From positions 25,730,001-25,794,000 of the forward strand of contig OZ024753.1 in NCBI GenBank assembly GCA_964016885.1: 64,000 nt of DNA, read 5' to 3'. The notes below the pieces were generated by a model. That model was given only the letters and a program-made list of their open reading frames with translations, ran no database searches and had not been told where the DNA came from. The stretch comes from Eledone cirrhosa. Lineage: Eukaryota. The translations under genes and the position numbers were made by a program. This document shows, one piece after another, positions 9,068 through 21,515 of this stretch. Numbering within the stretch: the first letter of the stretch is position 1; every line of letters begins with the position of its first letter.

Positions 9068-9452
9068 TATATATATATATATACATATATATATATACAT
9101 ATATATATATATACATATATATATACATATATATATATATATATACATATATATATATATATACATATATATCTATATCCAAAATTAAGATAAATTAAAT
9201 GAATTTAATCTAAATCAAAATTATGGGTGTCATGCCGGAAAGGCATGCGCCATATCACCCGGGAAATAAGCTCTAAGATTCTAACAAATAGGTCCGAGCA
9301 TTTTATAATAACTAGAAATTGATTAACATATATATAAACATGAATAATCACAGGAGATAATTTTTACAAGTGTGTAACCACACATAGCTAGGTAGGTAAC
9401 TAAATAAAGTTGACTAGAACTTTAAAAACAGATACCTTACAATATGATTAAC

Positions 9453-9546
9453 CTTCCCTGTATATATTCCATTAAAGAAATATATTTCACCAATTAATCA
9501 GATGGTAAACCACGGAAGTGGAGATTGTGGATTTTCAACAAGGAAG
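9453..9546 (-). ncRNA. Type I hammerhead ribozyme, U3-A8 core
   Basis: Minus strand reads CTTCCTTG-TTGAAAA-TCCA...TGGT-GAAA-TATATTTC tttaat GGAATATA-TA-CAGGGAAG: 8-bp stem I, 9-bp stem III, AUA triplet. Confidence 0.75.
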
Positions 9547-9867
9547 AAAATATTCAGCTATCCGTGCTTACACTTCAAGTTCAAATTTGCAACTGGCTAC
9601 TACCACGTGTTGCATCTATTATAAATAAATACACACGCCACAGCAGCTTCGTCCCAGTGGCGCGAATAGGGTTATCGACAAATATAAATAGCAGTCGAGT
9701 CCTTTCAACAGAATTAGCTCTACAATTAAGGAGCCGTATTTATATATCTATATCCAAAATTAAGATAAATTAAATGAATTTAATCTAAATCAAAATAATG
9801 GGTGTCATGCCGGAAAGGCATGCGCCATATCACCCGGGAAATAAGCTCTAAGATTCTAGGATATTTT

Positions 9868-9941
9868 CTTCCTTGCTGAAAATCCAAAATCTCTGATTAA
9901 TTGGTGAAATATATTTCTTTAATGGAATATATACAGGGAAG
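9868..9941 (+). ncRNA. Type I hammerhead ribozyme (inverted copy, C3.A8 mismatch)
   Basis: CTTCCTTG-CTGAAAA-TCCAA...TTGGT-GAAA-TATATTTC/GGAATATA-TA-CAGGGAAG. Confidence 0.7.
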
Positions 9942-10595
9942 GTTAATCATATTATAAGGTATCTATTTTTGAAGTTCTAGTCAACTTTATTTAGTTACCT
10001 ACCTAGCTATGTGTGGTTACACACTTGTAAAAATTATCTCCTGTGATTATTCATGTTTATATATATGTTAATCAATTTCTAGTTATTATATATACATATA
10101 TATATATACATATATACATATATATATATATATATATATACATATATAAATATATATATACATATATATATATATATATATATATATATATATATATATA
10201 TAAATATATATACATATACATATATATACATATATAAATATATATATACACATATATATATATATACATATATACATATATATATATACATATATATATA
10301 CATATATATATATACATATACATATATATATATATATATATATATATATATATACATATATATATACATATATATATATATGTACATATACATATATATA
10401 TATATATATATATATACATATATATATATATATACATATATATATATGTACGTATATATATATACATATACACATATATAAATATATATACATATACACA
10501 CACATATATATATATACATATATATATATACATATACAGATATATATATATACATATACATATATATATACATATAGATATATATATATACAAGT

Positions 10596-11548
10596 TACAA
10601 GTTAATATAAATTAATATATGATAAACGCTAATATAATCATATAAGTGTTTGTATTGCAAATGACCAAGTTAGCCAGATTGAAAAATACTAATTAGATTA
10701 ATACAGTTTGCCTGTCTCGATTTAAAATAATAAATCCAGGTATCACGGCTATTGCCAATATAGGTTTGTTTTTATTGATTTATTATTTTAAATCGAGACA
10801 GGCAAACTGTATTAATCTAATTAGTATTTTTCAATCTGGCTAACTTGGTCATTTGCAATACAAACACTTATATGATTGTATTAGCGTTTATCATATATTA
10901 ATTTATATTAACTTGTATTTCACGGCTCAGAAATACATCTTTCTTTGAGATAATTAATTGTAAAAGACTGTTTGAGTTTATAACTCTATATATAGTATTA
11001 ACGGCTCCTTTTGTTGAGCTAAATTTTAGTCCCATATAAACGGCTTTTATTTCTAGCAGAACGAGTATGGGGATAGCTAGGAGCTGAAAAACCATGTGCG
11101 TTAACACTTGACTATCAGTCCTCCTAAGTATTTCGAGGTGAAACATACCAATTTTTCTGGATACCTGCTGATGACCACAGGAAATGGAATTTTTCACTTC
11201 TTCAGTTATCGCTGAGAAAATTATTTGGGTTTTGAAATTTAAATATGTCTACGGAACAGGTTTGAGTTTTGAAATTTAAATTTGTCCAGGTATCACGGCT
11301 ATTGCCAATATGGGTTTGTTTTTATTGATTTATTATTTTAAATCGAGACAGGCAAACTGTATTAATCTAATTAGTATTTTTCAATCTGGCTAACTTGGTC
11401 ATTTGCAATACAAACACTTATATGATTATATTAGTGTTTATCATATATTAATTTATATTAACTTGTATTTCACGGCTCAGAAATACTTCTTTCTTTGAGC
11501 TAATTAATTGTAAAAGACTGTTTGAGTTTATAACTCTATATATAGTAT
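10596..11548 (+). mobile_element. Non-coding HHR element B (550-bp monomer, ~1.5 units, 5' inverted arm)
   Basis: Direct repeat 10737-10998 = 11287-11548. 10596-10736 is an inverted copy of ~10778-10917. (TA)n flanks. Confidence 0.8.
11160..11294 (+). ncRNA. Type I hammerhead-like motif with irregular stem II
   Basis: GATACCTG-CTGATGA-...-GAAA-TTTAAATTT-GTC-CAGGTATC: 8-bp stem I and GUC triplet. Stem II is poorly paired at its base and the GAAA segment is locally duplicated. Confidence 0.6.
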
Positions 11549-11879
11549 ATATATACATATATATATATATATATACATATACATATATATATACATATAC
11601 ATATATATACATATACATATATATACATATACTTATATATATATATATACATATACATATATATATATATACATATATATACATATACATATATATATAC
11701 ATATACATATATATACATATACATATATATACATATACATATATATATATACGTATATATATATATGATTCCAGTTCCTCAGTGAACTAACAACCCAACC
11801 AGGAACTGGGCATGTCAGAGTATTGACAAAGTTATACCCCTCAACAACATATGTACTTGTCTATACCACAGTAATTCGA

Positions 11880-19652: not shown

Positions 19653-19759
19653 TATATATATATACATATATACGTAGGTCCCGGGTTGAGTCGGGGATAA
19701 CCACAGTAAGTAAGGTACTCAATACATGGCAGAGTAAAATTTTTTTATTTTATAGAAGG

Positions 19760-19810
19760 AGCATCTACAGGACTAGTACTGTTTCATTCATATGAAATCT
19801 TCAGGAAGCT
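19760..19810 (-). ncRNA. Type I hammerhead ribozyme
   Basis: AGCTTC-CTGAAGA-TTTC atat GAAT-GAAA-CAG tactagtc CTG-TA-GATGCT (one stem I mismatch). Confidence 0.75.
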
Positions 19811-20289
19811 GGGTGTCATATTAAGTTCTGGTATTTATACATTTAGGTAGTGGTAAGGGAGGGGTGGTGGATTGGGGGGGGGGGGGGGTACAAAAGCAGT
19901 CTGGCCACTTGTGGCTTGTATGTTAACTTGACCACTCACCCCAGTCTGTGCCATGATTCGGTCTTGTTAAATGTTTAATTTCTATTACCAACCCACCTAA
20001 AAAATTTCCCTACTATATATCTGTTGAATTACTTTTTTTTATTTATTTATTTTTTGTTTATTTTATTTATTTATTCATTTATCTATTTATTTATTCATTT
20101 ATTTATTTATTTACTTATTTATTTATTTCAAAAAGCACTCTGGCTAATTGACCACTCCCCAAAGAAAAAACGGCCTGTGCCATGAAGTGGTCCTATGTAT
20201 CTAAATACTATACCCCCCACCCCCCCAATCCACCACCCCTCCCTTACCACTACCTAAATGTATAAATACCAGAACTTAGTATGACACCC

Positions 20290-20340
20290 AGCTTCCTGAA
20301 GATTTCATATGAATGAGACAGTACTAGTCCTGTAGAAGCT
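20290..20340 (+). ncRNA. Type I hammerhead (GAAA mutated to GAGA)
   Basis: AGCTTC-CTGAAGA-TTTC atat GAAT-GAGA-CAG...CTG-TA-GAAGCT. Confidence 0.65.
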
Positions 20341-20766
20341 CCTTCTATATATATATATATATATATATATATATATATATATATATATATATATATATAG
20401 TATGGCACTTACTTAAATGTAAGTATGCATGTATACGTACATACATATATGTATACAGACGTACAGTAGCATGCACATATATATATATATATACATACAT
20501 ATGCATACAGGTACACGTGCATATATGTATGTGTACCTGTATGCATATGTATGTATATATATATATATATGTGCATGCTACTGTACGTCTATATATATAT
20601 ATATATATATATATATATATATATATATATATATATATATATACATATATATATACATATATATATATATATATATATATACATATATATATACATATAT
20701 ATATACATGTATATATACACACATATATATATATATATATACATATATACATATATATATATATAC

Positions 20767-21515
20767 ATATCACGATAAATTAAAGGAGGCATAGGCCCTC
20801 GCTATTCCCTGTAAATAATGTGCTCAAAGGAGAAGAAATCCTGAGCTCTTTAAAATACAATATGTTGAAAAGGTAACACACCAGAGAGAGATATACAGTG
20901 CGTTATCAATAAAACAGAGAAAAAACCACCAGTGTATGGAATCTATAACCTATGAAAGGCAGACTATAGACACGATAATTTAAAATATAAATTAAACCGT
21001 AAATAAATACCTCTATAACTATATAACACACGTACAAATCCAAAGACACTAATCCAAAGATATGTTTCACCAATAATTTGTTGAAAGAAATGGGTTAGCC
21101 TCGGTTCATCAGCGTGTGTAAGGCTATACATTTCAGACAACACTAAGAGAATTTTAAAATTGACTGTCCAGCTACACGTGGGAGAGAGAAGTCACAGCGT
21201 GTTTAAGGGCAGTGAACCAGTGGCCTCTGACGGACGAACTGCTAGAAAAAGCAGCCCAAAGCCACTCAGAGAAGTGTGCTCAACCAAACAGAGAAGGAAT
21301 GACTGTTATTAGGAGCGAAATATCACGATAAATTAACGGAGGCATAGGCCCTGGTTATTCCCTGTAAATAATGTGCTCAAAGGAGAAAAAATCCTGAGCT
21401 CTTTAAAATACAATATGTTGAAAAGGTAACATACCAGAGAGAGATATACAGTGCGTTATCAATAAAACAGGGAAAAAAACTACCAGTGTATAGAATCTAT
21501 AAACTATGAAAGGCA
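20767..21515 (-). mobile_element. Non-coding HHR element D (~553-bp monomer, ~195-bp terminal direct repeats)
   Basis: 20767-20961 is repeated at 21320-21515. One internal HHR on the minus strand, (TA)n flanks. Confidence 0.85.
21026..21119 (-). ncRNA. Canonical type I hammerhead ribozyme
   Basis: Minus strand reads ACACACG-CTGATGA-ACCGA...TTGGT-GAAA-CA...TG-TA-CGTGTGT: 7-bp stem I, GUA triplet. Confidence 0.88.

Follow-up and report, generated by a model that had tools for sequence, protein, structure and literature searches.

Non-coding retrozyme families of Eledone cirrhosa share a bulged hairpin with Hydra-clade Penelope-like elements, their probable mobilising partner

The window, a 64,000-nucleotide stretch of Eledone cirrhosa DNA (contig OZ024753.1 of assembly GCA_964016885.1) to which all coordinates refer, contains four islands that are members of four dispersed non-coding families, F1-F4, whose copies sit in (TA)n as tandem arrays truncated at the 5' end. 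A first-pass annotation had described ORF-less islands with periods of 575, 550, about 630 and 553 bp, and both points held, as did the (TA)n flanks: self-BLAST returned direct repeats at 9166-9283/9741-9858 in island 1 (period 575), 10735-10998/11285-11548 in island 2 (550), 14207-14404/14836-15037 in island 3 (about 630) and 20767-20961/21320-21515 in island 4 (553), and the islands contained no ORF of at least 120 aa save frames running through (TA)n. The layout A'-B-HHR-A (HHR, hammerhead ribozyme) given for all four was found as described, but islands 1 and 2 additionally have an inverted 5' arm. In the following, A and B denote two fixed end sites.

9168..9858, (-) strand: direct arm of F1, comprising 1.2 units; its 3' end, site A at 9168-9172, lies in (TA)n
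9861..10090, (+) strand: F1 inverted arm, ends at site B and contains a second hammerhead copy
10596..10735, (-) strand: F2 inverted arm, ends at site B
10735..11548, (+) strand: F2 direct arm, 1.5 units, starts at most 2 nt from a predicted cut site, 3' end is site A
14214..15034, (+) strand: F3 copy, 1.3 units, single fixed end
20767..21515, (-) strand: F4 copy, 1.35 units, 3' end at site A

Measured from cut to cut in natural multimer loci, the monomers are 567 (F1), 550 (F2), 628-629 (F3) and 541 nt (F4) long, with a GC content of 0.31-0.39, i.e. below 50%. The little sequence identity noted earlier among the islands was borne out by pairwise local alignments of the monomers, which scored no better than shuffles (z at most 2.2), although the monomers have short collinear blocks in common. 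None of the families has the ORF with reverse transcriptase (RT) and GIY-YIG that characterises an autonomous Penelope-like element (PLE), and tblastn with four PLE protein pieces gave no match in the monomers below E 0.26. F3 is the youngest family, its best copies being 98-99% identical.

Each island contains a type I hammerhead:

9453..9546, (-) strand: F1 hammerhead with a U3-A8 core and a stem I of 8 bp, cut predicted after 9461
about 9868-9941, (+) strand: second F1 hammerhead copy in the inverted arm, C3-A8 mismatch, 20-nt deletion in stem II
11160..11294, (+) strand: F2 hammerhead with a stem I of 8 bp; stems II and III are long, and the cut is predicted after 11286
14691..14772, (+) strand: F3 hammerhead, canonical core, predicted cut after 14766
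21026..21119, (-) strand: F4 hammerhead, canonical core, predicted cut after 21033

The stem II region spans 33-97 nt in F1-F4. The F1 and F2 cores are partly non-canonical: the base of stem II is a U-U in F1 and mismatched in several F2 copies, and the window's F2 hammerhead is degenerate, with mismatches at the bases of stems II and III. A U3-A8 core is an active hammerhead variant (PMC3088659). The Rfam search recommended in the annotation found no hammerhead in four multimer loci at the gathering score; on the whole window it gave 216 matches, and the 150 of them that were listed were of microRNA type and fell on (TA)n and palindromes. An exact hammerhead pattern, in contrast to a control without any match, occurred genome-wide 820 times for F3 and 908 times for F4. 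The sequence of stem I varies between subfamilies with pairing kept, C3-G8 alternating with U3-A8, and this compensation suggests selection for cutting.

The genome-wide search with each monomer, also proposed earlier, yielded about 2,300-4,000 candidates per family (F1 3,974, F2 3,969, F3 2,320, F4 3,089; 40 scored per family) and allowed the ends to be mapped. Exclusion of the hammerhead from the duplicated segment holds for the four window copies but not genome-wide, where arrays contain up to 4-5 hammerheads. Arrays of 4-5 units with uniform length variants, with periods of 599 bp and 641-642 bp, are present. Units of one array were more alike than units from separate loci, with 1.6 versus 4.9 differences for F3, 4.4 versus 8.7 for F2, 5.1 versus 8.9 for F4 and 3.5 versus 5.3 for F1. 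In 16 of 103 multi-unit loci, a small sample, every unit has a column absent from the rest of the sample; the nearest neighbour lay strictly in the same locus for a minority of units (5/36, 23/55, 22/106 and 16/68), ties being many. The insertion targets are (TA)n, in which a duplicated target site cannot be read. One F4 copy adjoins PLE coding sequence (locus L218), and one F3 copy stands after a PLE 3' UTR (locus L124). Contigs from three sequencing runs of unrecorded kind cover F3 and the monomer junction, with strand, ends and level unreadable there. Circular folding gave z values of -1.5 to -5.2 for the sense and +0.3 to -5.2 for the antisense strand, which is not sense-specific and hence uninformative.

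In the window copies, the 3' end lies 293, 262, 268 and 266 nt after the predicted cut in F1, F2, F3 and F4. These distances agree with the roughly 290, 262, 268 and 266 nt reported before, but the ends are not equivalent: those of F1, F2 and F4 are at site A, and that of F3 is B-type. F1, F2 and F4 use site A plus site B (B at +157, +182 and +178), and the B-type end is the single end of F3. The claim of a fixed internal 3' end was thereby confirmed, as in position-ordered samples 47 of 49 F3 segments ended at +268-272 and 41 of 48 F4 segments at two sites (23 at +173-182, 18 at +266-267). The 5' ends, placed by the annotation at or after the upstream cut site, do fall there in the four window copies but are scattered genome-wide. 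Neither a pile-up at the cut site nor one at exact unit length was seen for 5' ends in F3, where none of 49 segments began within 20 nt of the cut, and F4 showed a few such cases. Two 5' junctions do lie at the cut site, in the window's F2 copy and at locus L219. Among 16 inverted F4 insertions, 11 joined A with B, none joined A with A or B with B, and 5 had one non-fixed end; F3 had 2 inversions in 47 insertions. The tails from B to A measure 80-136 nt in the retrozymes and 160 in one Hydra family (see below). F1-F4 thus display the PLE-type features of fixed internal 3' ends, optional tail, 5' truncation and inverted 5' arm, and the inversion-plus-tail pattern, a PLE signature, supports the earlier reading of mobilisation by a PLE.

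A bulged GCUC/GAGC hairpin of about 16-30 nt was found 3-9 nt downstream of all seven retrozyme ends (7/7), end positions in this comparison being placed by eye:

9270..9299, (-) strand: F1 B hairpin, 5 nt downstream of site B
9717..9734, (-) strand: F1 A hairpin, 9 nt downstream of site A
11004..11019, (+) strand: F2 A hairpin, matching the Hydra A hairpin of L351 at 15/16 nt
11475..11500, (+) strand: F2 B hairpin
14406..14427, (+) strand: F3 B-type hairpin, 4 nt downstream of the fixed end position
14497..14510, (+) strand: F3 shrunken A-type hairpin, unused as an end in 49 segments
21375..21399, (-) strand: F4 B hairpin, second copy at 20822-20846
21278..21316, (-) strand: F4 A hairpin, with a long insert
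25526..25545, (-) strand: B-type hairpin outside the islands, within the 3' end of a coding PLE fragment of Hydra type

Genome-wide, the B hairpin pattern had 10,770 matches compared to 70 in the control, and the A hairpin pattern 1,895 compared to 4. Thirty A-pattern loci comprised 28 F1/F2-like loci, none with a Hydra ORF within 1.5 kb, and 2 Hydra ORF starts. By the cut-off used, the cut site was the start of 2 of 30 A-pattern loci and of none of 30 B-pattern loci, too few to weigh either way. In F3 one hairpin is usable; this family has a single end and rarely shows inversions.

The bulged hairpin also lies 3-9 nt downstream of 3/3 ends of Hydra-clade PLEs in this genome, and it was found at 0/6 ends of three other PLE families. 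Three abundant PLE families, the young 1217-aa family, the two-ORF 777-aa Neptune-like family and the L218 family, were rejected as partners because their ends lack the hairpin; that F4 carries a remnant of the 1217-aa N-terminus was likewise unsupported. The partner elements L341 and L351 match Hydra in RWK, DKT, the CxCX5C linker, a C-terminal GIY-YIG, the hammerhead and the (TA)n target, an assignment made by comparing motifs and target with the clade's published description (PMC8557442, section 11); the Hydra search returned 53,914 candidates in the genome. Among 45 non-redundant Hydra-type ORF 5' regions from metagenome contigs, 40 contained the hairpin, as against 5 on the reverse strand, 0 in the coding control and 1.6 in shuffles, and 24 of 37 such regions had twin hairpins spaced by 55-83 nt. 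The Hydra twins lie 35-140 nt upstream of the start codon. Their outer pair was G-C in 61, U-A in 6 and A-U in 1 case and the inner pair C-G in 48 and U-A in 20, of which only the split between pair types is informative since pairing itself was set by the search pattern. Where metagenome elements ended in foreign flank, 6 of 9 ends stopped 0-4 nt before the hairpin. As Hydra, too, carries ends directly before the hairpin, the hairpin is likely a start signal for the Hydra copying enzyme. The best local alignment of each monomer to one Hydra pLTR falls on the A site, with z of 3.1 for F1 and F2 (2/200 shuffles) and of 1.2 and -0.3 for F3 and F4, the latter two being no better than shuffles; no single Hydra family was tied one-to-one to a single retrozyme family.

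F1-F4 are almost certainly non-LTR retrozymes, best read as four families within a single large group of such hammerhead repeats, and judging from the sequence patterns, Hydra is likely their mobilising partner, with the hairpin setting the starts. Taken as a whole, these retrozymes are probably copied by the Hydra RT/GIY-YIG protein from the hairpin on a likely circular monomer RNA. Array transcripts would self-cleave to monomers that are then ligated into circles. The Hydra protein would bind the bulged hairpin, with reverse transcription beginning a few bases before it, nick (TA)n and prime at B as the main site. Priming of the other strand at A by a second subunit would give head-to-head arms that differ by the B-to-A tail. 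Copying could run past the ligated cut site, producing 0.5-5 units with a random 5' stop, and copies of more than one unit would regenerate a template with two hammerheads. The annotation, with its one fixed priming site, had missed the second start site, the hairpin and the partner clade.

The circularity of the template, which we infer as the annotation did, is a step we favour only somewhat over an uncut linear multimer. A less likely, though still serious, alternative keeps partner and hairpin and takes as template an uncut linear RNA read through a tandem locus, with rare or late hammerhead cutting and no need of a circle. The Poseidon element PAc inserts from unprocessed RNA, in vitro without needing its hammerhead (PMC11167929), and 8/9 Xenopus retrozyme dimers are reported as uncleaved in a 2026 preprint (bioRxiv 10.64898/2026.07.22.740005), which counts against the self-cleavage step. 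The 5' junctions at the cut site in F2 and L219 suggest that linear RNAs ending there might occasionally act as templates, and the homogeneity of arrays could stem from a homogeneous source array. However, if linear templates were copied with 5' truncation, arrays could only become shorter, and the uniform 4-5-unit arrays speak against this; moreover, the stem I compensation implies selection for cutting, 5' ends near the cut are absent from the F3 sample, and retrozymes of coral, mussel and axolotl are described as largely circular in PMC7229834.

Alternatively, the hairpin might have another role within the Hydra 5' UTR, as a signal for the promoter, for translation or for an endonuclease, with ends set by TA-like tracts annealing to (TA)n. 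We regard this as improbable: the twins do precede the Hydra start codon, and most ends carry a short TA-like tract, but the hairpin is kept in families without an ORF, many longer TA-like tracts of the monomers are not ends, the Hydra B end has nearly no TA likeness, ends in other organisms track the hairpin at 0-9 nt, and F3 has one good hairpin and one end. Derivation of the islands from coding PLEs, as pLTR stumps or rare deletion products, is largely refuted and very unlikely, even though PLE stumps are common in window and genome and the copies at L218 and L124 neighbour PLE sequence. The families are independent, non-coding and tandem, with thousands of copies as head-to-tail monomers lacking coding sequence, and the L218 family, at the other loci examined, finishes in an unrelated 3' end of its own; the tblastn result and the 28/28 F1/F2-like loci without a nearby Hydra ORF point the same way. 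Satellite amplification at the DNA level, by unequal crossover or local duplication, appears the least plausible. It was proposed as a route in the preprint and would suit the likeness of units within a locus, but instead of long local arrays without RNA-defined ends we found short arrays dispersed over many contigs, each closing in (TA)n at the same RNA-defined 3' end; their 5' ends vary at random, and inverted arms occur.

F1-F4 resemble animal non-LTR retrozymes (PMC7229834, Cervera and de la Pena 2020; the above preprint, Li, Clavereau and Pollet 2026) in several respects: the monomers are non-coding, tandemly arranged, poor in GC and equipped with a single type I hammerhead, copies number in the thousands, and mobilisation by PLEs has been proposed. 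F1-F4 also fall within the size range of 51-972 bp reported in the preprint, so that the unusual size suggested by the annotation was not upheld. They differ from those published retrozymes in their 33-97-nt stem II region, and add mapped fixed ends, inverted arms, a conserved start hairpin and a partner clade assigned via a shared cis element. Their type I topology and tandem monomers also set them apart from plant LTR retrozymes, in which a type III hammerhead lies in LTRs flanking a variable core. In vitro, PAc of Anolis (Frangieh et al. 2024, PMC11167929) likewise uses two internal RT starts whose spacing equals the tail, AT-rich targets, extension of both strands and RNA required downstream of the starts. 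Its starts, however, lie in an AC-rich stem-loop within the ORF, with a tail of 30-40 nt, whereas F1-F4 RNA is non-coding, with a hairpin per start and tails of 80-136 nt. Elements of the Hydra clade (Craig et al. 2021, PMC8557442) likewise insert in (TA)n and have a type I hammerhead, a tailed inverted arm and the twin hairpin, but unlike F1-F4 they have an ORF. Non-autonomous Chlamys elements such as MRC1 are also non-coding PLE passengers with pLTRs and head-to-tail copies; they mostly lack hammerheads and have 3' sequence in common with their partner (PMC8557442), whereas F1-F4 share only the short hairpin.

Priming and mechanism were left open in the available text of both retrozyme reports, and priming and the mobilising element are named as an open question in the discussion of PMC7229834 and in the preprint. 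Our comparisons point to the hairpin-based priming rule and Hydra as partner as what is new here, the retrozyme kind itself being already known. The hairpin of about 16-30 nt predicts both starts, the tail length and whether inversions form, and offers a search handle for Hydra elements and passengers missed by standard hammerhead models. PLE RTs are the sister group of telomerase, which makes hairpin starts a natural comparison for internal template placement. With even chances, in our estimate, the twin hairpin may be a clade-wide start handle of Hydra RTs, one per dimer subunit, and would be the first conserved element known to position the template in a retroelement related to telomerase. 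It might then suffice to make any small RNA circle a substrate, and more than ten thousand ribozyme-circle copies would parasitise Hydra, keeping little but handle and hammerhead. We found no description of the hairpin as a start signal in the literature searched; in PMC8557442, 'hairpin' and 'initiation' do not occur in the main text, nor 'hairpin' and 'stem-loop' in the supplement. The twin hairpin is visible in the Hydra-1_Ajap consensus printed there.

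The window is dense in retroelements and (TA)n, within an assembly of 3.0 Gb. Its occupants include:

1806-5030, CR1/L2-type LINE
5735-8878, Helitron Rep/helicase ORF of 1047 aa
32144-38781, tandem copies of an RT-bearing LINE with (ATT)n ends
56409-57816, 56-bp minisatellite of 25 units

The four (TA)n islands at 9168-10090, 10596-11548, 14214-15034 and 20767-21515, their internal direct repeats and the cut-to-end distances described in the first-pass annotation are all present in the sequence, and a genome search assigned each island to a separate dispersed family (F1 to F4). 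A first look yielded 3,974, 3,969, 2,320 and 3,089 candidates, respectively (40 scored per family), and exact hammerhead patterns (28 and 25 nt) matched 820 times for F3 and 908 times for F4, compared to 0 for the reversed control. Natural monomers, from one predicted cut to the next, measure 567 (F1), 550 (F2), 628-629 (F3) and 541 nt (F4) at a GC content of 0.31-0.39. Pairwise similarity among these monomers was not above that of shuffles, and neither long ORFs nor matches to proteins of Penelope-like elements (PLEs) were found in the four families. The elements are non-LTR retrozymes. Their size and their link to PLEs are not new, as a 2026 preprint gives retrozyme consensus lengths of 51-972 bp and argues for a PLE origin from similarity to Xenopus pLTRs, the terminal repeats of PLEs (bioRxiv 10.64898/2026.07.22.740005).

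Because the initial samples favoured full matches, position-ordered pattern hits were used instead to map the ends (60 F3 and 30 F4 loci); removal of edge-touching segments and duplicates left 49 F3 and 48 F4 segments. In F3, 47 of the 49 segments ended at +268-272 past the predicted hammerhead cut, the remaining two being inverted arms. F4 segments stopped at +173-182 (site B; 23 segments), at +266-267 (site A; 18) or elsewhere (7). Among 16 inverted F4 insertions, A was paired with B in 11 and never like with like, the other 5 having one non-fixed end; the 10 non-inverted insertions ended at B (7), at A (1) or elsewhere (2). The same two sites occurred in F1 and F2, in a sample biased to full matches. 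Retrozyme 5′ ends were scattered. The fixed internal priming proposed in the first-pass annotation is supported by the fixed 3′ ends, which lie at two sites, A and B, in F1, F2 and F4. The end pattern of the retrozymes is that of PLEs, with two internal start sites and the tail between them: the Anolis Poseidon element PAc uses two such sites separated by its tail in vitro, where both strands are cut and extended (PMC11167929). At five loci (L346, L352, L170, L371 and L373), copies of retrozymes and of the PLE clade Hydra start at the A site directly after (TA)n, some comprising exactly one unit; possible reasons are TA microhomology or, on a circular template, an encounter of the RT with its own primer.

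All seven fixed retrozyme ends (7/7) are followed, 3-9 nt further along the monomer, by the start of a 4-bp GCUC/GAGC stem whose 3′ side carries a two-base bulge. F3 has a single well-formed hairpin, located at its single end, and its A-type copy is reduced in size and does not serve as an end. With a degenerate pattern of the B form, the genome gave 10,770 matches versus 70 in the control, and with the A-form pattern 1,895 versus 4. The loci behind these matches are mainly F1-, F2- and F4-like subfamilies (67-96% identity, same block order, periods of 495-630 bp), and the four islands are therefore samples of a larger group. The hairpin rule turns the open question of priming into a concrete test. 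A TA-flanked non-coding stretch of about 1.3 kb (L244, G000:C1:14576722-14579748) fits the B-hairpin pattern, matches none of F1-F4 and is possibly a further passenger family. Within the window, an ORF-less partial tandem at 27615-28278 (+), with a period of 495, an identical 159-bp repeat, (TA)n at its end and no recognisable hammerhead, is possibly another non-autonomous PLE.

Three abundant (TA)n-targeting coding PLE families were considered as partners and lack the stem after their ends (0/6 ends). A fourth PLE clade carries it. Its ORF of 927 open codons at one locus (L341) contains RWK, DKT and a CxCX5C linker, which are defining features of Hydra (PMC8557442, section 11) and identify the clade as such; it has 53,914 candidates in the genome. 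In one Hydra family, fixed ends occur at two positions separated by about 160 nt, each with a stem after it, and the A hairpin of this family differs from that of F2 at 1 of 16 positions. In E. cirrhosa, 8 of 10 5′ regions of Hydra ORFs scored positive for the hairpin in an automated scan; in another it is recognizable by eye, its outer pair being changed, and the tenth is truncated past the hairpin. Among 30 loci retrieved with the A pattern derived from retrozymes, 2 proved to be the starts of Hydra ORFs, and the hammerhead of that Hydra family likewise has an extended stem II region. Monomer similarity to the one aligned Hydra pLTR was confined to the A site and exceeded shuffles for F1 and F2 only. 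In a metagenome survey, an alignment of 32 homologues led to 77 loci, 45 of them non-redundant with at least 90 nt ahead of the ORF. The hairpin occurred in 40 of these 45 5′ regions, compared to 5 on the reverse strand, 0 in the coding region and 1.6 in shuffles. Twin hairpins were present in 24 of the 37 regions long enough, and the outer as well as the inner base pair varies in type. Of 9 element ends with foreign sequence beyond, 6 stop 0-4 nt short of a hairpin. The twin hairpin is also visible in the published Hydra-1_Ajap consensus (PMC8557442, supplement). At the level of the clade, Hydra is the likely mobilising partner of the retrozymes, and its protein would bind the hairpin. A Hydra 3′ stump at 27400-27610 (+) of the window (also L355 and L374) comes from a family whose hammerhead resembles those of the retrozymes in the length of its stem II region; this family is a candidate for their closest coding relative.

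Full-text literature searches and the searched passages, section 11 and supplement of PMC8557442 did not contain the hairpin rule, the A-with-B inversion rule or the Hydra assignment, which subscription papers, Repbase notes or further supplements may hold; the searched passages of PMC13282606 mention neither hammerheads nor retrozymes.

The template was probably a monomer circle, although we hold this with some reserve. Some arrays reach 4-5 units, and in part of these a length variant is common to every unit; units within a locus differ by about half as much as between loci or less (two thirds in F1), inverted arms counted; in 16 of 103 multi-unit loci all units have a common column that is private within the sample; and no F3 5′ ends lie near the cut site. 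These features agree with rolling synthesis on a single monomer circle, and so does the detection of circular retrozyme RNA in coral, mussel and axolotl (PMC7229834). However, most units tie with or are nearer to units at other loci, and folding energies are not sense-specific. Also counting against a circle, PAc functions on uncut RNA (PMC11167929), and 8 of 9 Xenopus retrozyme dimers failed to cleave (bioRxiv 10.64898/2026.07.22.740005).

The Rfam check suggested in the first-pass annotation found no hammerheads at gathering score in four multimer loci. All four families have type I hammerheads in which the stem II region is long, at 33-97 nt. The cores of F3 and F4 are canonical; that of F1 is U3-A8, with U-U at the stem II base, and a mismatch occupies this position in many F2 copies. 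U3-A8 is an active natural variant (PMC3088659). Across subfamilies, stem I varies in sequence with base pairs kept, and the 3-8 pair is C3-G8 in some and U3-A8 in others, a sign of selection on the fold of these putatively self-cleaving motifs. Short PLE 3′ stumps at 11740-11980 and 12975-13740 (+) carry hammerhead motifs of minimal form at a distance of 50-100 nt from the (TA)n that follows.

At 21656-25070 (-) lies a copy of a very young PLE family (also L151-L158; 18,170 candidates), which has an intact RT/GIY-YIG ORF of 1217 aa. Like PAc, it has fixed 3′ ends inside the early ORF, here 2-3 within the first 30 codons, and an inverted arm stops about 43 nt short. In a Neptune-like PLE at 52855-55316 (L251-L260), a 427-codon ORF1 overlaps a 777-codon RT/EN ORF in another frame, possibly a frameshift; its 3′ UTR contains long (TG/TA)n tracts, and its hammerhead core is U3-A8. 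At L218 (G000:C1:84942903-84945927), a short fold-back connects an F4 copy to an unrelated PLE at its GIY-YIG region, and the remainder of this PLE is absent.
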